From the NCBI GenBank assembly GCA_963815215.1, contig CAWFFU010000003.1:1-64000 (forward strand): a stretch of 64,000 nt of DNA, read 5' to 3'. Positions within the stretch are counted from its first letter, which is position 1, and every line of letters starts with the position of its first letter. The notes under the pieces were generated by a model. It did not search any database and was not told the origin of the DNA. It saw nothing but the letters and a program-made list of their open reading frames with translations. Of the stretch, positions 22,976 to 31,483 are shown one piece after another. The DNA comes from an uncultured Trueperaceae bacterium. GTDB lineage: Bacteria > Deinococcota > Deinococci > Deinococcales > Trueperaceae. The position numbers and the translations under genes were made by a program.

Positions 22976-23623
22976 TCAGCGGACGCGTTCGCGTTCGCGT
23001 CGGAATGCCAGGTAGTGGCGGTAGAGCGCCACCAGCGCCATCGACGCGACCCCTGCGGCGATCTCCCAGGAGACAGCCGCGCCGCGCCCGCGGGCGAGTT
23101 GCGAAGCCAGCACCAGAGCCGGGTAGAGCGCCACCGTGATGACGGCGGCCAGCCCGGACCGGTGGCGCAGCGCCAGGGTCAGGACGAGCAGCACGCCGGC
23201 ACCGAGCAGGCCCCCGAGCGGGTAGAGCGGCAACGAGACCCCGAAGGCGGCGGCGAGCCCCTTGCCGCCACGGAAGCCGATGTACAGCGAGAACGCGTGG
23301 CCGAGGACGGCGCCCAGCCCGGCGGCGAGCGCGGGCAGCAACCAGGTCAAGGGGCCGTTGGGCGCTGTCGGCGACTGTGCCAGCAGTAGCCCGACGCCGG
23401 TCGCCGCGGCGCCCTTGGCGGCGTCGAGAAGCAGGACCAGCGCGCCCAGACCGAAGCCGAGGTTGCGCGCGGTGTTCATGGCGCCCATGTTCCCGGAGCC
23501 GATCTCGAAGATGGTGGCGCCGCGCACGCGCGCGATCCAGGCCGCGAAGGGCAGCGACCCCAGGAGGTAGCCGGCCACCAGCGCTGCGACGACCTCAAGC
23601 ACCGGCGGCTCCCGCGGCGGCAT
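22976..23623 (-). CDS. plsY: Glycerol-3-phosphate acyltransferase PlsY
   Basis: YLLGSLP, GSGNMGAMN, DAAKG and FRGGKG motifs. Confidence 0.92.
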   Translation of the reverse strand: MPPREPPVLEVVAALVAGYLLGSLPFAAWIARVRGATIFEIGSGNMGAMNTARNLGFGLGALVLLLDAAKGAAATGVGLLLAQSPTAPNGPLTWLLPALAAGLGAVLGHAFSLYIGFRGGKGLAAAFGVSLPLYPLGGLLGAGVLLVLTLALRHRSGLAAVITVALYPALVLASQLARGRGAAVSWEIAAGVASMALVALYRHYLAFRRERERVR

Positions 23624-24329
23624 GCCGCGGCGTGGCGAAGGCGTGAAGCTCCCGCACGTGGTAGGTGACGTAGCGCTCGAGCACCCGCCATTGGAGCTCC
23701 CGGTCGACGGGCGGTGTGCGCAGCAGAGCGTGAAGACTGCCGGCGACGAGCCGGCGTAGCTCTGCCGCCCCGTCGGGCCCCAGGCTCATGCCGCGGGCGC
23801 AGGCGCTGCAAGCGAGGCCGCCGCCGGCGACGTCGAGCGCGACCAGCGGACCTTCGGCGCGACACTGCAGGCACACGTCGGTGGAGGGCGCCAGGCCGGC
23901 CAGGCCCAGCAGCTTCCAGGCGTAGGCGAGCGCCACCAGGTCGGGGTCCGGGTGCCGGTTCAGCCCCCGCAGTCCGCTGGCGAGGTAGGCGTAGACTTGC
24001 TCGCCGAGATGGACGTCAACCGTCAGGGCGTCGGTGAGTTCGGCCAGCACGTGGGCATACGGATAGATCTCGGGCTTCGCGAGGTTGGGCAGCGCTCCGT
24101 TGAGGCGCACCTGGGTGAGCAACGCGAGATCGTCCTCGTGCTTGCGGTAGTACTGCACGGTGACGTCGTGGAAGAGACTGAGGCGCCCCAGGTTGCCGCC
24201 CGGCAGGCGGCCCTTGCGGGCGATGCCGCGCCACTTACCGTGCTCGCTCATGAGGGTGGCGACCAGATCGCCGCTCGGCAGGACCTTGCGCCGGATGACG
24301 ATGCCCTCGGTTACGGATGTGCGCCGCAC
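23595..24329 (-). CDS. recO: DNA repair protein RecO
   Basis: OB-fold N-terminus and CxxC..CxxC zinc motif, as in Deinococcus-type RecO. Confidence 0.9.
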   Translation of the reverse strand: MRRTSVTEGIVIRRKVLPSGDLVATLMSEHGKWRGIARKGRLPGGNLGRLSLFHDVTVQYYRKHEDDLALLTQVRLNGALPNLAKPEIYPYAHVLAELTDALTVDVHLGEQVYAYLASGLRGLNRHPDPDLVALAYAWKLLGLAGLAPSTDVCLQCRAEGPLVALDVAGGGLACSACARGMSLGPDGAAELRRLVAGSLHALLRTPPVDRELQWRVLERYVTYHVRELHAFATPRHAAAGAAGA

Positions 24330-24358
24330 GGCTCCAGTCTACGGGGCTAGGCCGCGCT

Positions 24359-24658
24359 TCAGGTGTCGGCGGTCGTTCTCCAGACGACCAGGGCTTCGCC
24401 CTCGACGGCCTGCAGCGTCAGCTCGAGCCCGGCCGGCAGGTGTAGGGCGTCCCCCCGCTCCAGGATCCGGAAATCGCCATGTGGGAGGTCGACGATCAAG
24501 CGGCCCTCGAGCACCAGCAGCCAACTCGCGGCCGACGTCCGTTCCTGGTGCTGCTCGGCCAACCGGCGGACGCTCAGGTCGGTGCCCGGCACCAGCGCGG
24601 GGCGTTGGCCCGAGGCGCGCGCCAACCCCAGCAGGTTGAGGGGCTCGCCGACGCTCAT
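24359..24658 (-). CDS. Small cupin-like hypothetical protein
   Basis: WLLVLEGRL..LERGDALHLPAG cupin pattern; directly downstream of topA. Confidence 0.65.
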   Translation of the reverse strand: MSVGEPLNLLGLARASGQRPALVPGTDLSVRRLAEQHQERTSAASWLLVLEGRLIVDLPHGDFRILERGDALHLPAGLELTLQAVEGEALVVWRTTADT

Positions 24659-24673
24659 GGAGCTGTGTTTCGC

Positions 24674-27610
24674 TCAGACCGGCTCGGCCTGAGGCTCCTG
24701 GTTGCGATGCTTCCCGAAGGCCATGCGCAGCTTGAACATTCCCCGCTTGTGCAGGCGCACGACTTCGTCCTGGCTCACCTGCAAGGCCCTGGAGACGTCC
24801 TCCTGCGGCTGAGCCGGGTAGCCGTTCATGCCCTCGATCCGCGCCACCGCCTCGGCGACCTGCGGGTCGAGCTCTCCCAGGAAGGGAGCGAGGTCGGCGT
24901 TGCTGGCCTTGGGGCGCTTGGTGCCGGCGCTCCTCGAAGCCTTCTTCGCGCGCTTGGCGGTCGCCTTACCCTTCTTGGCAGTGCCTTTGCCCTTGCCGCC
25001 GCCCTTGACGCTCTTGCCGGTCTTGGCCGCGCGCGCGGCCAGCAGCTCGACGGCTTGCTCCAGTGTGACGTCGTCGGGGGAGACGTCGTTGGGCAGCGAG
25101 GCGTTGAGCTTGCCGCTCTTGACGTAGGGTCCGTAGCGCCCGTCGCGTACTTCGATCGCCGTGCCGGCCTCGGGGTGCTCGCCGAGCACCCGGAGAGCCT
25201 TGTTGCGCGAGGCCTTCTTGTGGAGCAACTCGACGGCCTGGTCGAGGGCGACTTCGAGCACGAAGGTGTCCTTGGGGATGGAGGCGTAGACGCCCTGGTG
25301 GCGCACGTACGGCCCGTAACGTCCCACGCCGATCTCGACCGCCGCCCCCGTCTCGGGGTGTTCCCCGATACTCGCCGGCAGCGCCAGCAAGCGCGCGGCA
25401 AGCTCGGCGTGCATGTCGTGCGGGGAGACGCCGGGCGGCAGCGACACGCGCTTGGGCTTGACCTTCTTGTCACCCTTCTTGCCGCCCGTGCCGGCGTCCG
25501 CCGGGACCTCGCCGAGCTGAAGGTAGGGCCCGTAGGGCCCGCGCTTGAGCAGCATCGGCAAGCCCGACGCCGGTTCCTCACCGACGACCACATCGCCCTT
25601 GTTGCCTTCCAGCAGGTACTGCTCGAGCATCTCGCGGGTGACGTCGCCTGGGGCGAGGTCGTCGGGGAGGGAGGAGGTCTTGAGCTCACCCGCCTCGACC
25701 GGCCCCTCCACGTAGGGACCGTAGCGCCCGACCCTCACCACGTACGGGTCCCAGGGCCCATTGTGGATGGTCGAGATCTCGCGCGCGTCGATGCCTTCGA
25801 GGCCTTCGCTGACGCGCGCGTCGATCCCGCCTTCACCAAGGAAGAAGTCGCGCAGGTAGGGCTTCGAGGCCAGCGAGCCGGCCGCGATGTCGTCCAGCGC
25901 CGACTCCATGTTGGCCGTGAATTCCGTGTCGACCAACTGCGAGAACTGCCGCTCGAGCAGGTTGTTGGTGGCGAACGCCATGAAGGTCGGTACCAGCTGG
26001 GAGCCGTTCTTGCGGGCATAACCCCGCCGCATGATGGTGTCGATGATGCTGGCGTAGGTGCTGGGGCGGCCGATACCCTCGCTCTCCAGCAGCTTGACCA
26101 GCGAGGCCTCGGTGAAGCGGGCGGGGGGTTTGGTCTCGTGGCCTTCGGCGGTGACATCGTTCATGCTCAACGCGTCGCCCTGCGCCAGTTCGGGCAGGGG
26201 CTGATCTCGATCGTCCAGGGCGGCGTCGGGATCATCCGAGCCTTCGACGTAGGCACGGAAGAACCCGGGGAACAGGATGGTGCGCCCGCTCGCCCGGAAC
26301 GTGCCTTCGCCCAGCGAGGTGCTTGCGGCGATGCGCGCAGTGACGAACTTCAGGCGCGCGTCCGCCATCTGGGTCGCCAGCGTGCGCTTCCAGACAAGCT
26401 CGTACAGCGCCGCCTGCACGCCTCTCAGGCCGTGCTCCTCGGCGGTGAGCATGGCGCGGCCGGCGGGCCGGATGGCCTCGTGCGCTTCCTGAGCGTTGCG
26501 TGCCGTTCCCTTGAACTGCCGCGGATTCGGGCTGAGGTAGTCGCTGCCGTAGCGCTTTCCGATCGCCTCGCGGCTGCCTTCGATGGCTTCCTGCGAGAGG
26601 TTGGTGGAGTCCGTGCGCATGTAGGTGATGTAGCCGTTCTCGTAGAGCTCCTGCGCTACGCGCATGGTGTCCTTGGCGGCAAGGCTGAGCTTGCGGCTCG
26701 CCTCCTGCTGCAGCGTCGAGGTCGTGAACGGCGCCGAAGGGGAGCGTGTGGAGCTGCGTTCCTCGACCGACGCGACCCGCCAGGCGGCGCTGTGCGCGGC
26801 CTCGGCCAGGCCGCGCGCTCGGGCCTCATCGAGCAGTAGGACGTCCCGCCCGGGCTCGAGGCCGTCTCTCAGGCGGCCGGTCTCGGCGTCGAAGTCACGG
26901 CCGCCGGCCAGGCGGACACCGTCCAAGTGCGTCAGCACCGCGGCGAACGGGCTCGAGTCCTTACGGAGCCTGGCCTGTAGGTCCCAGTAGCCCGAGGGAA
27001 CGAAGCGCATCCGCTCCTTCTCGCGCATCACCAGCAGCCGTACCGCCACGCTCTGCACGCGTCCCGCGGAGAGCTTGGGGGCGATCTTCTTCCACAGTAG
27101 CGGGCTGATGCTGTACCCGACCAGGCGATCGAGCACGCGGCGCGTCTCCTGCGCATCGACCAGGTGCACGTCGATGTCGCGGGTCGCGTCGAGCGCACCC
27201 CGGATGGCGTCCTCGGTGATCTCGTGGAACACCATGCGCTTCACCGGCACGTCGGGCTCGAGCACCTCCACCAGGTGCCAGCCGATCGACTCCCCTTCGC
27301 GATCCTCATCCGTTGCGATGTAGAGCTCGTCGGCGTTCTTCAGTGCCGAGCGCAGGCTACTGACCACGCTCTTCTTGCGAGGCGACACCACGTACAGCGG
27401 CTTGAATCCCTGGTCCACGTCGACGCCGAGGCGAGCCCAGCTCTGCCCCTTGAGCTCCTTGGGGATCTCCGCGGCGGAGGCGGGCAGGTCGCGCACGTGG
27501 CCCATCGAGGCCTCGACCTGGTACTGGGCCGGTAGGAAGCGCCGGATGGTCCGAGCTTTGGTCGGCGATTCCACGATGACGAGGCGTTTGGTCTGTTTCT
27601 GAGCAGTCAA
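24674..27610 (-). CDS. topA: DNA topoisomerase I with four GRYGPY-type C-terminal repeats, a Lys-rich linker and an extra C-terminal HTH domain
   Basis: IVESPTKA, ATDEDREGE, SAGRVQS, ITYMRTDS and GIGRPSTY motifs. Confidence 0.97.
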   Translation of the reverse strand: MTAQKQTKRLVIVESPTKARTIRRFLPAQYQVEASMGHVRDLPASAAEIPKELKGQSWARLGVDVDQGFKPLYVVSPRKKSVVSSLRSALKNADELYIATDEDREGESIGWHLVEVLEPDVPVKRMVFHEITEDAIRGALDATRDIDVHLVDAQETRRVLDRLVGYSISPLLWKKIAPKLSAGRVQSVAVRLLVMREKERMRFVPSGYWDLQARLRKDSSPFAAVLTHLDGVRLAGGRDFDAETGRLRDGLEPGRDVLLLDEARARGLAEAAHSAAWRVASVEERSSTRSPSAPFTTSTLQQEASRKLSLAAKDTMRVAQELYENGYITYMRTDSTNLSQEAIEGSREAIGKRYGSDYLSPNPRQFKGTARNAQEAHEAIRPAGRAMLTAEEHGLRGVQAALYELVWKRTLATQMADARLKFVTARIAASTSLGEGTFRASGRTILFPGFFRAYVEGSDDPDAALDDRDQPLPELAQGDALSMNDVTAEGHETKPPARFTEASLVKLLESEGIGRPSTYASIIDTIMRRGYARKNGSQLVPTFMAFATNNLLERQFSQLVDTEFTANMESALDDIAAGSLASKPYLRDFFLGEGGIDARVSEGLEGIDAREISTIHNGPWDPYVVRVGRYGPYVEGPVEAGELKTSSLPDDLAPGDVTREMLEQYLLEGNKGDVVVGEEPASGLPMLLKRGPYGPYLQLGEVPADAGTGGKKGDKKVKPKRVSLPPGVSPHDMHAELAARLLALPASIGEHPETGAAVEIGVGRYGPYVRHQGVYASIPKDTFVLEVALDQAVELLHKKASRNKALRVLGEHPEAGTAIEVRDGRYGPYVKSGKLNASLPNDVSPDDVTLEQAVELLAARAAKTGKSVKGGGKGKGTAKKGKATAKRAKKASRSAGTKRPKASNADLAPFLGELDPQVAEAVARIEGMNGYPAQPQEDVSRALQVSQDEVVRLHKRGMFKLRMAFGKHRNQEPQAEPV

Positions 27611-27637
27611 TGGGGTTCCACCTTCAAATGCGCCGCC

Positions 27638-27665
27638 ATTATACGGACCGCCCCGCGTCTGTCAA
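27638..27665 (-). promoter_or_regulatory. topA promoter
   Basis: Perfect TTGACA-16 bp-TATAAT followed by GGCGGCG. Confidence 0.8.
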
Positions 27666-27748
27666 CTGTGGCGTGGCCACCGGTCGAGGCCCTGCGGCGC
27701 GCCCGAGGCCGGCGCTGGTCCGCGGCGCGACCGCGCCGGCGGGCCGGA

Positions 27749-28351
27749 TCAGAGCGGGCGGCGGTGGCTGATGGCACGTCCCAGGGTCACCTCGTCGGCG
27801 TACTCGAGGTCGCCCCCCATGGGGAGGCCGTAGGCGATCCGCGAGACCGACACGTCCCGCTCGCCGAGCTGTCGCGCCAGGTACATCGCGGTGGCTTCGC
27901 CCTCGACCGTGGTGGAGGTGGCGAGGATGACCTCGCGGATGTCCGGGCTCCCGGTCCGCTCCATCAGCGCGCCGATGGTGAGCTGGTCCGGCCCGACACC
28001 GTTCATGGGGCTCAACGCGCCGTGGAGCACGTGATACAGACCCTGGTACTCACCGCTTCGTTCGATGGCCAGCACGTCCGCCGGCTGCTCCACCACGCAC
28101 ATCACCGATCGCTCGCGTAGGGAGTCCGAGCACACCGCACAGGACGGCTCTCCCTTGGTCATGACGTTGAAGCAGACCGGGCATCGGTCCAGGAACGCTT
28201 TCGCGTCCCGGATGGAGTCCGCAAGGCGTCGAACGTCCTCCTCGGGCTGGTTGAAGAGGTAGAAGGCCAGGCGCTGAGCGCTCTTGGGGCCGATACCCGG
28301 CAGTCGTCCGAGCTCCCGGATGAGGGTGACCAGCGCCGTCGGGTACTTCAT
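27749..28351 (-). CDS. recR: Recombination mediator RecR
   Basis: LPGIGPKSAQRLA, C4 zinc finger, Toprim domain, GGDLEYADEVTL. Confidence 0.96.
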   Translation of the reverse strand: MKYPTALVTLIRELGRLPGIGPKSAQRLAFYLFNQPEEDVRRLADSIRDAKAFLDRCPVCFNVMTKGEPSCAVCSDSLRERSVMCVVEQPADVLAIERSGEYQGLYHVLHGALSPMNGVGPDQLTIGALMERTGSPDIREVILATSTTVEGEATAMYLARQLGERDVSVSRIAYGLPMGGDLEYADEVTLGRAISHRRPL

Positions 28352-28370
28352 GCTCGCGATGCTCCTGCGA

Positions 28371-28691
28371 TCAGAACGGGCCGCCCATGCCGCCGAGCCC
28401 GGAGAGGCCACCCATGGCGCCGCCGAGCTCCTGCTCCTGCAGCTCCTTGACCTTGCGCTGGGCGTCGTTGATCGCGGCGGTGACGAGATCCTCGAGCATC
28501 TCCAGGTCGTCGGGATCGACGGCCTTGGGGTCGATGTGAACGCGCGTCACGGTGCCGTCGCCGTTGGCGCTGGCCCGCACCATGCCGCCCCCGGCGCTGC
28601 CTTCGACGGCCATGCCGGCGAGGCGTTCCTGCGCCTCGGCCATCTGCTTCTGCGCGCGCTGCGCTTCCTTCATCAGTTTCTGGATGTTCAT
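28371..28691 (-). CDS. ybaB: YbaB/EbfC nucleoid-associated protein
   Basis: AGGGMV..DLEMLEDLVTAAINDA, in dnaX-ybaB-recR synteny. Confidence 0.95.
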   Translation of the reverse strand: MNIQKLMKEAQRAQKQMAEAQERLAGMAVEGSAGGGMVRASANGDGTVTRVHIDPKAVDPDDLEMLEDLVTAAINDAQRKVKELQEQELGGAMGGLSGLGGMGGPF

Positions 28692-28709
28692 ACGTTCTCC
28701 CAGGGCAGT

Positions 28710-29717
28710 CTAGCCCGCGTCGTCGCGTCGGGGGGTCGTGTCTCCGGCCTCGTCGGCGTCCTCGCCCTCGGGGTCGCCGGCGCCGGCGCCGGCCTCTTCA
28801 CCGGTCTCCGTGCCGTCCTCGCCGTCTCCTGCGCGCGGCGTGACCGCGAGCAACTCGCCGGGGAACAGCTCCTGAAGGGCGTCCACGGTGTCTCGTAGGG
28901 CCTCGGGAAGCTCATCGGCCGTGGCCTCGCCGCCGAGCAGGGCGCGCTCCAGGTCCCCACCGGTAGCAGCGTCGCTCGTTCCTGTGTCAGCTGTGCCCGC
29001 TTCGACTTCACCTTCGCCGCTCGCGCCGCCTTCCGGCGGTCGCTGTTGGGACTGCGGGCGCGGGGCTCGCTCGCGCGGAGATTGGGCGCGCGGAGATTGG
29101 GCGCGCGGAGAGTGCGGGCGTGAGGAGCGCGATGGTGCGGACGGCGGTGGCGCGTCCCAGAACCCGGGCGGGAGCTCCTCGACGCCGGTCGCGACGTCAT
29201 CGGGGATACCGGGATCCCGGTCCTGGTCCCTGGCCCCCGATTCGGGTACTTCGCTTGCCGGCGCCGCGCCCTCCTTGGCCTCCATCTTGGACGCTCGGGT
29301 CGTGGACGCTTCGGTCACCGAAGTAGCGGGCGCCGGCGACCCGTCATCGGCGGTCTCGTCGTCGGGCGCTGCCTCCTCGGGCGCTGCCTTCTCGGGCGCT
29401 GCCTTCTCGGGCGCTGCCTCGTCGGGCGCCGGCTCCTCGGGCGCTGCGTGCTCGGCCGCCGTATCCAGAAGCGCCGTGTTCCGGGCCGCCGTGTCTTCGG
29501 CCGCCGTGTCTTCGGCCGCCGTGTCCTCGGTCGCCGTGTCCTCGCGTGCGTCCTCGGGAGCTCCGCGCTCGGGCGCACCGTCGTCCTGGGCGTCGCCCTC
29601 CGGGGATGGGGAGGACGCGCCGGACGGCAGCGGTCGATCCCGTTGTGGCGGGTTCGCGGCCGCCGCAGTTCGTGGGGCTGCCGGGGCTCCCGCCGCGCGG
29701 GGCCCCGTCAGGCTATT
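28710..29717 (-). CDS. dnaX: C-terminal -1-frame extension of DnaX (tau-specific part), reached by frameshift or slippage
   Basis: The -1 frame is open for 335 codons from the A8 run (NSLTGPRAAG..) through ORF 28710..29318 to TAG. It ends in a small folded-looking segment (LPEALRDTVDALQELFPGELL) and an acidic tail. Confidence 0.8.
   Translation of the reverse strand, partial: NSLTGPRAAGAPAAPRTAAAANPPQRDRPLPSGASSPSPEGDAQDDGAPERGAPEDAREDTATEDTAAEDTAAEDTAARNTALLDTAAEHAAPEEPAPDEAAPEKAAPEKAAPEEAAPDDETADDGSPAPATSVTEASTTRASKMEAKEGAAPASEVPESGARDQDRDPGIPDDVATGVEELPPGFWDAPPPSAPSRSSRPHSPRAQSPRAQSPRERAPRPQSQQRPPEGGASGEGEVEAGTADTGTSDAATGGDLERALLGGEATADELPEALRDTVDALQELFPGELLAVTPRAGDGEDGTETGEEAGAGAGDPEGEDADEAGDTTPRRDDAG
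29362..29540. repeat. Degenerate 15-bp coding tandem repeats (EDTAA / AAPEK)
   Basis: GGCCGCCGTGTCTTC and GGGCGCTGCCTTCTC units. Confidence 0.85.
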
Positions 29718-29723
29718 TTTTTT
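29682..29723 (-). promoter_or_regulatory. dnaX recoding signal: A8 run plus downstream GC hairpin
   Basis: CCA AAA AAA ATA GCC TGA, with hairpin CGGGGCCCCGC-GCG-GCGGGAGCCCCG at 29707-29682. Confidence 0.75.
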
Positions 29724-31483
29724 GGTGCGCCCCCGTCGGGACCTTCGATCAGGATCGTGTGGCCGGGGCCGGCGACCTCGTCGACCAGGGCGGCGAGCTC
29801 CTCGGAGCGCCCCAGGAGCTGAGCATGATGGAAGCGGTGGACGGCGTCGTACGTGAGTCGCACCACGTCTCCGTCGACGCTCTCGTGCGCCGGCTTGAGG
29901 AAGGCCTTGAGCTGCGCGCCCGCCTTCGCCTTGACGGCCCGCCAGGACAGCGGCTTGCGCGGCGTGTCGGTCGTGTCCGCGTGCGACGCTGCGTGCGATG
30001 CTGCGGGCGATGCCGGTTCGGAGTCCGAGGCGGCGTACGTACTCGCGTTCCGATCGGTGTCTGGATCGGTGTCTGGATCGGTGTCTGTACCCGCGCCGGG
30101 CGACGCTTCCGGCGGTGTGCTCGCCGTCGCCTCTGTCCGCGTACCGGCTGCCGCACCCGCACTTTCGGCGGACGCGCGCTTACCGGAGCGGCCGCGGCGC
30201 CCGCCGTTCGGTTCGAAGGGAGGCGCCGCCGGCGCACCGGGGCGGCCGGCGCCGGCGTCACGGGTGGCGAAGTCGCCCGGCTCTTCTGCGCTCGCTCCCG
30301 AGCCCGACTGCGTGACCGCGGCTGGGTCCACAGCTGGGTCCGCGACAGTGTCCGCGACAGTGTCCGCGACAGTGTCCGCGGTCGTGTCCGCGGTCGTGTC
30401 CGCGGCCGGGGCCCCGGTCCCCTCGCCGGCGGAACCCCGCCCCGCCCCCTCGCGCAGCGCGTTGAGGCCCTTGATGAGGGCCACCTCGAGCGCGTAGAGA
30501 TCGTTGTGCCGCAAGAAGCGCTCCATATCGTCGTCGAGCGCCTGGATGACGCGCATCAGGGCGGCATCGTCGATCGCGAGACGGAAACCCCGTCCACTGA
30601 CCGAGCCCACCAGGGCGTCGCGCAGGGTGCGCGTGAGTTGTTCAGCCAGCGTGCGCGGCGAGAACCCCTCGCGATAGAGCGCGGCGGCTTCGTCGAGCAG
30701 CGTCGCCAGATCCTGCTCGGCGAGCGCGCCGCCCATCGTCCGTAATCGATCGTTCGGGGGCAGCCCCAGCGCCTCCTCGGCGGCACCCGCGGTGATGCCG
30801 TCGTCGAGCAGCAGCAGCCGTTCGAGCATCGACTCGGCGTCGCGCATTCCGCCGTCGGCAACCCGCGCCACCAGCCGGAGGGCTTCCGGCTCCGCTGCGA
30901 CGTCGGCCGCCGCCGCCAGCGCCTCCAGCTTGCCCGCGATCTCATCCTCGGAGAGGCGCCGGAAGCGGAAGTGCTGGCAGCGCGACAGGATCGTCGGTGG
31001 CAGCTTCTCTGGTTCGGTCGTCGCCAGGATGAAGAGCAGGCCTGGAGGGGGTTCCTCGAGCGTCTTCAGCAAGGCGTTGGCGGCCGCACGGCTGAGCATG
31101 TGGGCCTCGTCGAGGATCCATACCCGGGTGCCGCCGCGCAGACCCGCCAGGCCGACCTTCTCACGCAGATCCCGAACGTCGTCGACCGAGTTGTTGGAGG
31201 CCGCATCGAGCTCGGTCACGTCGGGGTGCGAGCCCTCCTGCACCAGGCGGCAGGATTCACAACGACCGCAGGGCCGCGCGGCCGGGTCCTCGTCCTCGCA
31301 ATTCGCCGCCATCGCCAGCAGGCGTGCGGTCGTAGTCTTGCCCACCCCCCGCGGGCCGGAGAAGAGGTAGGCGTGACCGATGCGGTCGCGGCGAACCGCC
31401 GAGCCCAGCACCTCGATGACATGTTCCTGGCCTACGACCTCGTCGAAGCGGACGGGGCGGGCTCGTTGGTACAGCGCCGACAT
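29708..31483 (-). CDS. dnaX: DNA polymerase III subunit gamma/tau (zero-frame product, 591 aa)
   Basis: GPRGVGKTT, ELDAASN, DEAHML, LLKTLEEPP and SRC motifs. Confidence 0.96.
   Translation of the reverse strand: MSALYQRARPVRFDEVVGQEHVIEVLGSAVRRDRIGHAYLFSGPRGVGKTTTARLLAMAANCEDEDPAARPCGRCESCRLVQEGSHPDVTELDAASNNSVDDVRDLREKVGLAGLRGGTRVWILDEAHMLSRAAANALLKTLEEPPPGLLFILATTEPEKLPPTILSRCQHFRFRRLSEDEIAGKLEALAAAADVAAEPEALRLVARVADGGMRDAESMLERLLLLDDGITAGAAEEALGLPPNDRLRTMGGALAEQDLATLLDEAAALYREGFSPRTLAEQLTRTLRDALVGSVSGRGFRLAIDDAALMRVIQALDDDMERFLRHNDLYALEVALIKGLNALREGAGRGSAGEGTGAPAADTTADTTADTVADTVADTVADPAVDPAAVTQSGSGASAEEPGDFATRDAGAGRPGAPAAPPFEPNGGRRGRSGKRASAESAGAAAGTRTEATASTPPEASPGAGTDTDPDTDPDTDRNASTYAASDSEPASPAASHAASHADTTDTPRKPLSWRAVKAKAGAQLKAFLKPAHESVDGDVVRLTYDAVHRFHHAQLLGRSEELAALVDEVAGPGHTILIEGPDGGAPKKIA
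30052..30403. repeat. 12-bp coding tandem repeats in the DnaX linker (DTDP; ADTV/ADTT)
   Basis: GATCGGTGTCTG x3 at 30052-30087; GTCCGCGACAGT-type units at about 30337-30403. Confidence 0.85.

Follow-up and report, generated by a model that had tools for sequence, protein, structure and literature searches.

C-terminal elements of bacterial topoisomerase I

The C-terminal accessory elements known for bacterial topoisomerase I (TopA) include zinc ribbons, Topo_C_Rpt repeats, lysine repeats and, in Chlamydia, a SWIB domain (PMC10969213; PMC12445093). Coupling of TopA to RNA polymerase (RNAP) through the TopA C-terminal domains is documented for Escherichia coli and Mycobacterium smegmatis (PMC10969213), and the recruitment of TopA to transcribing RNAP varies among phyla and is mechanistically unsettled. 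Here we analyzed a stretch of 64,000 nucleotides (hereafter, the window) from an uncultured Trueperaceae bacterium of the phylum Deinococcota (GenBank assembly GCA_963815215.1, contig CAWFFU010000003.1, positions 1 to 64,000 of the forward strand), in which the product of the topA gene (positions 24674-27610, minus strand) ends in a diverged region-4 domain of the sigma-70 family (hereafter, sigma-4). The protein can be described either as a TopA that carries, at its C terminus, an accessory domain particular to its lineage or as a case of a sigma-4 domain located outside a sigma factor.

The closest described systems share some features with this protein and differ in others. In E. coli topoisomerase I, the C-terminal extension formed by the zinc-ribbon domains D5-D9 has likewise been proposed to place the enzyme behind the polymerase. 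The C-terminal domain is located at the upstream fork, with D5 touching the beta-prime subunit (10.1101/2024.10.07.617030; PMC10969213), and the contact between the two enzymes is described in the preprint as small and DNA-dependent (10.1101/2024.10.07.617030). The zinc ribbons, however, are unrelated to the helical sigma-4 fold, and there is no sigma-like element in the E. coli enzyme. The mycobacterial and Streptomyces enzymes share with the window TopA the cysteine-free G(R/K)(Y/F)GPY repeats, of which the latter has four, and a Lys-rich segment; but whereas actinobacterial TopA ends in a basic tail, as outlined in the 2024 review, the window TopA adds a folded sigma-4-like domain after it (PMC10969213). 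A precedent for the lineage-specific fusion of a helical domain of the chromatin or transcription type is found in Chlamydia trachomatis TopA, which carries a C-terminal SWIB domain (NF004966; PMC12445093), although this domain belongs to a different family than sigma-4 and the organism to a different phylum.

A full-text literature search, with most subscription journals outside its coverage, yielded no description of a sigma-like domain in TopA, in line with an earlier reading of the sequence alone (hereafter, the original prediction), which had regarded the fusion as apparently undescribed. The main text of a 2022 survey of TopA C-terminal motifs does not mention sigma, helix-turn-helix (HTH), HTH, helical, Deinococc- or Thermus (PMC9369019). 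In the sections of the 2024 review that we consulted, TopA of D. radiodurans (1021 aa) appears only in a table, and we found neither a sigma-like or HTH domain nor a discussion of Deinococcota TopA (PMC10969213). The domain match is nevertheless already implicit in public databases, although apparently without comment: the Pfam family Sigma70_r4 (PF04545) is a precomputed annotation of at least one database relative, P0015.

The TopA tail is a diverged sigma region-4 domain

The domain occupies residues 904-971 of TopA (positions 24698-24901, minus strand) and is delineated by an AlphaFold2 (AF2) model, Foldseek and profile matches, with helices predicted at residues 904-913, 916-926, 936-943 and 947-971. 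It follows the DNA-binding repeats and a flexible Lys/Arg-rich linker (residues 862-903; positions 24902-25027, minus strand) that contains 16 K/R and no D/E among its 42 residues, and a comparable basic linker precedes the sigma-4-like domain in every relative read.

By itself, the resemblance of this single sequence to sigma-4 is only suggestive. The Sigma70_r4 model matches residues 913-962 (positions 24725-24874, minus strand) with an E-value of 0.0042 when the tail alone is searched and of 0.13 when the whole TopA protein is searched, both matches falling below the gathering cut-off of 24.1 bits (17.0-17.5 bits for the tail); when the entire genome is scanned with this model, the tail ranks 19th (E 0.0126). 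BLASTP aligns 57 residues of the tail with the primary-like sigma factor of the same genome at 19% identity (E 0.022) and without a gap, in accordance with the gapless alignment to region 4 that had originally been made by eye. The tail peptide quoted in that alignment, LGELDPQ...MFKLR, corresponds exactly to residues 911-962 (nucleotides 24725-24880), but the protein does not stop at KLR as had been assumed: 16 further residues follow (MAFGKHRNQEPQAEPV), and the block of conserved residues continues via MAFGK.R to residue 971, as does the last helix in the prediction.

At the level of the family, the resemblance of the tails to sigma factors goes far beyond what chance would produce. In the PDB, a profile built from 26 tails of related genomes (A1) matched region 4 of RpoS, SigB, RpoH, RpoD and SigA (E 2.5e-5 to 0.07), in register across regions 4.1-4.2 and always at the sigma C terminus, and the sole non-sigma entries near the top of the list were designed repeat proteins with multiple weak stretches. 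Among 1.84 billion representative proteins, the same profile retrieved 387 at E <= 0.001, with TopA tails ranking first, followed by proteins with many sigma-4-like repeats and then by ordinary sigma factors at E-values of ~1e-8 to 1e-5. Individually, 20 of the 26 tails are matched by Sigma70_r4 (E <= 1), the best of them with an E-value of 2.2e-8, and the nearest clusters found with a language model are Sigma70_r4 proteins (score 0.94).

The predicted structure leads to the same assignment. AF2 models the tail as a confident four-helix domain (predicted local distance difference test [pLDDT], 92.2; predicted template modeling score, 0.78), and the top Foldseek matches of this model are almost all sigma-4 domains (probability 1.00; TMq 0.60-0.75), so that the fold is that of four helices with the region 4.2 HTH. 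Of these, 6ido superimposes with a root mean square deviation of 1.1 A over 58 columns at 31% identity, 5ipl reaches a TMq of 0.74, and sigma-4/flap-tip chimeras are among the top matches; the Foldseek E-values lie in a modest range (0.01-0.17), which is to be expected of a domain of 60 residues. Compared with sigma-4 as represented by sigma-A of T. aquaticus (1ku3 and 1ku7) and by the Klebsiella sigma-S/beta-flap-tip chimera (6ido), the tail shows the same fold, with its four helices in the same order, and the recognition helix likewise terminates in a conserved ...KL(R/K). Its loop is as long as that of group-1/2 sigmas, a length that in a joint alignment the Trueperaceae tails share with the group-1/2 motif G-L-x-D-G-x-x-x-T-L-E-E-V-G. 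It differs in its location, which is on a topoisomerase rather than after regions 2-3 of a sigma factor, and no Pfam match to Sigma70_r2 or Sigma70_r3 was obtained with the window TopA. Thus, the tail is a real, diverged region-4 domain of the sigma-70 family at the TopA C terminus, and the sigma region-4 fold that had been predicted for it is borne out by both the sequence profile and the predicted fold.

An origin from LuxR/GerE domains was considered and rejected, because the per-member Pfam, PDB and library searches found sigma factors rather than the HTHs of response regulators. An alignment of "sigma-4" sequences from the same genome (A6) turned out to consist mostly of LuxR/GerE-type HTHs and hence was not used for profile-profile comparison.

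Phyletic distribution and forms of the domain

A search with the single tail yielded matches in 30 of 41 related genomes. Five of the 11 nonmatching genomes were inspected, and two of these (G025 and G027) carry divergent versions, the other three lacking the domain. A pattern scan of species-representative genomes, which covered only the FKL(R/Y)(M/N)-type motif, identified 90 relatives, every named one of which belongs to Deinococcota (Trueperaceae, Calidithermus, Meiothermus and Oceanithermus). When the divergent forms were built into the profile (A4), 147 of the 151 Deinococcota genomes, each with a completeness of 90% or more, gave matches at E <= 0.001. Among the 150 rows listed, 134 genomes have the match at the C-terminal end of an open frame of 816-1317 aa, and one more has it in a 666-aa frame; 12 genomes have weaker matches, the place of which is not among the listed rows, and 4 have none. 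TopA identity was confirmed in the frames that were read individually and the Lys-rich context for 20 more tails. The sigma-4 fusion is ancestral to Deinococcota and nearly universal in this phylum; the survey of Deinococcota TopA that the original prediction had proposed thus shows that the domain is not unique to this assembly. The possibility that the tail is a separate small gene was rejected, because the tail shares the TopA reading frame here and terminates the long frames in the 134 genomes.

Outside Deinococcota, no fusion was seen among the best 150 of the 387 library matches, where every listed protein with TopA repeats has the Deinococcota-type motif. Other proteins in this library, including P0025, P0028, P0033, P0038, P0043 and P0049, are ~600-1700 aa long, originate from AT-rich sources and contain 5-9 tandem sigma-4-like repeats, in some cases placed behind a complete sigma factor N terminus; their scores are lower than those of the TopA tails and higher than those of ordinary sigma factors.

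Three forms of the domain can be distinguished. The first, Truepera/Meiothermus-like form reads ...HKRGMFKLRMAFGKARK. The second, found in all 77 genomes of genus g17 (presumably Deinococcus), is almost invariant and reads FTWADLKPHLGVLS...GLDVKKAKGMALQASKKLNQAARG, the latter segment being near-identical across 10 g17 genomes. The third form, present in 24 of the 27 genomes of genus g19 (presumably Thermus), is ~15 residues shorter and lacks the first HTH helix, with helices 1, 2 and the last one kept; AF2 predicts three helices for it, with a pLDDT of 73 for the whole model and of 82-88 for its core, and 27 columns are invariant among 11 sequences. Foldseek with the g19 model gave no significant match (all E >= 1, with Thermus sigma-A in the top rows at TMq 0.45-0.48), so that this form cannot be assigned by fold alone. 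The sigma-4-like domain occurs behind C-terminal domains of both the Toprim_C_rpt type and the Zn-ribbon type and is therefore older than that difference.

The domain has been duplicated on several occasions. Two tandem copies are present in 8 of 15 g22 genomes and in 3 of 77 g17 genomes. A contig from another member of Trueperaceae (G013:C365:1-3600, minus strand; L015) encodes at least three copies in an array that runs off the contig end, with a short Lys-rich spacer ahead of every copy. The 141-aa TopA C-terminal fragment P0034 from the representative library combines two different forms in tandem: the first is of the NFKLYALYR type also seen in family f5, and the second is of the ARKLNQAYRGE type of the presumed Deinococcus. 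This arrangement hints at an origin of the forms by duplication and divergence. In G025, which presumably belongs to the genus Deinococcus, a second TopA-like gene (G025:C18:38082-42791; L114) has a 702-aa frame with 44% identity over the catalytic core and no long C-terminal region. In P0047, a predicted protein of 371 aa from the representative library, ~150 N-terminal residues unrelated to TopA precede a piece of the TopA C terminus that includes the sigma-4-like tail; this protein is possibly an assembly or gene-call chimera.

These results bear on an alternative reading, namely that the tail only looks like sigma-4, by chance or as a functionless relic. Such a reading could draw on the subthreshold Pfam score of the single sequence, the low identity to the sigma factor of the same genome, the absence of the domain in three Trueperaceae genera and the lack of a significant fold match for the g19 form. 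The E-values of the profile against the PDB and the 1.84 billion proteins, the homogeneity of the sigma-4 fold matches, and the domain's presence in nearly all the Deinococcota genomes surveyed, its strong purifying conservation and its repeated duplication effectively refute this reading, and we regard it as highly improbable.

Residue changes and possible nucleic acid binding

To describe the divergence of the tails from sigma-4, we use column counts over 28 aligned tails and the numbering of E. coli sigma70, in which we take R584, E585, R586, R588 and Q589 to be the -35 contacts. The original prediction had noted that RERVRQ in the -35-recognition helix is replaced by QDEVVR, which is right and applies to the whole family. 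None of the tails has R/K at the R584 position, where half of them (14/28) have Glu; D/E occupies the R586 position in 24/28, and R/K is retained at the R588 position in only 6/28. The recognition helix in most tails starts with S-E-E-E. The position of R596, which is exposed in sigma, is occupied by Phe (27/28), followed by Lys at K597 in every tail, Leu at L598 in 26 and Arg at R599 in 24. In the window protein, these residues belong to the signature GMFKLR(M) inside the last helix (residues 956-962; positions 24725-24745, minus strand). The net charge averages -4 over the domain body and +5 over the last helix, which ends in GKARK-like basic residues.

These counts show that the presumed -35-reading arginines have been lost, with acids in their place. 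Given the acidic residues at these positions and the net acidic body, canonical -35 reading is unlikely, and canonical binding of DNA with the HTH in the groove probably does not occur either. We infer that the domain no longer reads promoters and has been kept as a protein-docking adaptor. The tail also exemplifies how a sigma domain can be recruited to a protein other than a sigma factor and be stripped of its DNA-reading residues.

In an alternative reading, the domain, together with the Lys-rich linker and the basic last helix, would serve as a nonspecific nucleic-acid anchor that binds DNA (or RNA or an R-loop) and raises the affinity or processivity of TopA, as the lysine repeats do in actinobacterial TopA. 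The parent fold is a DNA-binding HTH, a Lys/Arg-rich linker always precedes the domain, and the lineages without the domain keep or lengthen the Lys-rich tail; tandem duplication is the usual route to higher avidity for a polymer, and lysine repeats are reported to confer processivity on Streptomyces TopA (PMC10969213). The acidic start of the recognition helix and the net negative body disfavor the canonical mode with the HTH in the major groove, the invariant Phe-Lys-Leu would not be needed by a plain electrostatic anchor, and the g19 form has dispensed with one HTH helix and yet is strictly conserved. On balance, we consider the anchor rather unlikely. Even if the domain were only a DNA anchor, it would represent a new class among the TopA C-terminal elements, one that is not listed in the main text of the 2022 survey or in the sections consulted of the 2024 review (PMC9369019; PMC10969213).

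Possible docking on RNA polymerase

We favor a reading in which the tail docks TopA on RNAP through the beta flap, ahead of the nonspecific anchor, and tentatively assign it a probability of roughly 40%. Under this scenario, the sigma-4-derived tail would dock at the usual seat of sigma-4, the tip helix of the RNAP beta flap, which would be vacated once promoter escape displaces sigma-4. The linker of ~40 residues would keep the docked TopA beside the upstream DNA, the site where negative supercoils and R-loops arise. Tail docking would thus be a structural solution to TopA-RNAP coupling different from the zinc ribbons of E. coli and from the mycobacterial C-terminal region. The geometry appears plausible in view of the cryo-electron microscopy preprint on the E. 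coli RNAP-topoisomerase I complex, in which the last C-terminal domains of the topoisomerase are located at the upstream fork and duplex (10.1101/2024.10.07.617030). In the more specific version of this proposal, Deinococcota TopA would mimic sigma, taking the flap-tip seat of sigma-4 on core or elongating RNAP by means of a sigma-derived adaptor, a possibility that we put forward with still more reserve.

Several features of the tails would fit such docking. The contacts between sigma32 and the flap tip are described as involving A221, L225, W244, L245, L278 and E283 (PMC10216364), and in our alignment, L225 corresponds to the invariant tail residue L11 and L278 to the nearly invariant L65. 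The set of helices kept in the g19 form (1, 2 and the last) and the fixed aromatic residue at a probably exposed position would be compatible with docking as well.

A number of observations, in contrast, weigh against docking on the flap. In the alignment with sigma32, W244 falls on a conserved Glu/Gly of the tail (EG of R.EGM). The C-terminal helix that follows KLR in the sigma factor of the same genome (...YHESRTRKLRDFLD, as in group-1 sigmas) has no counterpart in the tail, where a single long basic helix runs on instead. Across the order, the flap tip does not vary, whereas the last helix of the presumed Deinococcus (GMALQASKKLNQAARG) differs strongly from that of Truepera and the presumed Thermus (KRGMFKLRMAFGKARK), which would not be expected if the tail faced a single, fixed surface of its partner. 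It is not obvious what tandem copies would contribute when there is one flap per polymerase; together with the occasional loss of the domain, they fit a polymer-binding accessory better. Such loss is observed in three Trueperaceae genera represented by genomes that are 92-97% complete (G014, G017 and G021), where TopA ends in a Lys-rich tail without the domain. The flap tip in elongation complexes is also the seat of the N-terminal domain of NusA, with which the tail would have to compete. Finally, there are no transcription genes among the neighbors of topA in the window (dnaX, recR, recO and plsY). A complex prediction for the tail (A1) with the 149-aa beta-flap domain of this genome (alignment A2) scored 0.00 in both runs, which were made without controls, and speaks neither for nor against binding.

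Some of this evidence would be accommodated by a different protein partner that recognizes the sigma-4-like surface, such as an anti-sigma-like or activator-like regulator, another element of RNAP, a recombination or replication protein, or the TopA core itself, the latter through autoregulation against the Lys-rich linker. Each of the three lineage forms is highly conserved internally, which suggests coevolution with a partner particular to each lineage rather than with the flap tip, which is invariant. The conserved, probably exposed Phe and the juxtaposition of an acidic body with a basic linker could be seen in the same light, as could the location of topA between recR and recO and downstream of dnaX. 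Gene order alone is weak evidence, however, no candidate emerged, and nothing in our analyses points to a specific regulator, so that we deem this explanation improbable.

The presence of a sigma-4 module on TopA across a whole phylum offers a concrete hypothesis for a different mechanism of coupling, and this phylum appears to include Thermus and Deinococcus, for which RNAP structural biology and genetics are mature. If sigma mimicry is true, the supercoil-relieving TopA would be a physically integrated, exchangeable, subunit-like factor that rivals sigma and NusA for one site, linking promoter escape, pausing and the relief of supercoils.

Architecture and genomic neighborhood of topA

The topA open reading frame (ORF), as defined from the ORF list and its translation, comprises 978 codons and a stop and begins with TTG. 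The protein is a bacterial topoisomerase I, with a TIGR01051 (topA_bact) score of 769.2 bits against a cut-off of 456.4. It contains a Toprim domain (residues 10-131; positions 27218-27583, minus strand; PF01751, E 1.5e-19) and a Topoisom_bac catalytic core (residues 146-585; positions 25856-27175, minus strand; PF01131, E 3.8e-116), and VIVESPTKA, ATDEDREGE and GYITYMRTDS, the last within the catalytic core, can all be read in the translation. The Tyr of GYITYMRTDS and the acidic residues of Toprim are presumably catalytic, as in E. coli TopA. The core is followed by four cysteine-free Toprim_C_rpt repeats (positions 25028-25768, minus strand; PF13368, four stretches, E 3.3e-56), with G[RP]YGPY motifs at residues 628, 691, 763 and 824, as is characteristic of a C-terminal domain of the Topo_C_Rpt type. 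The motif positions, the four Pfam stretches and the composition of the linker substantiate the four GRYGPY-type repeats and the Lys-rich linker of the original prediction.

On the same strand, topA is part of the series dnaX (29708-31483), recR (27749-28411), topA, an ORF of 99 codons that matches no family, recO (23595-24329) and plsY (22976-23623); the region 22976-31483 (minus strand) thus consists of co-directional genes, with those for DNA metabolism (dnaX, recR, topA and recO) followed by plsY. A long ORF on the plus strand that overlaps topA (24479-26839) is most plausibly a shadow frame, such as GC-rich genes produce. In its database form (P0002, 943 aa), this TopA begins at Met36 of the ORF, a difference that concerns positions 27506-27610 (minus strand). 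The Pfam and TIGR01051 matches start at residue 10 and cover VIVESPTKA, and the TTG at position 27610, which gives the protein of 978 aa, is the more likely start, because initiation at Met36 would cut off the beginning of Toprim.

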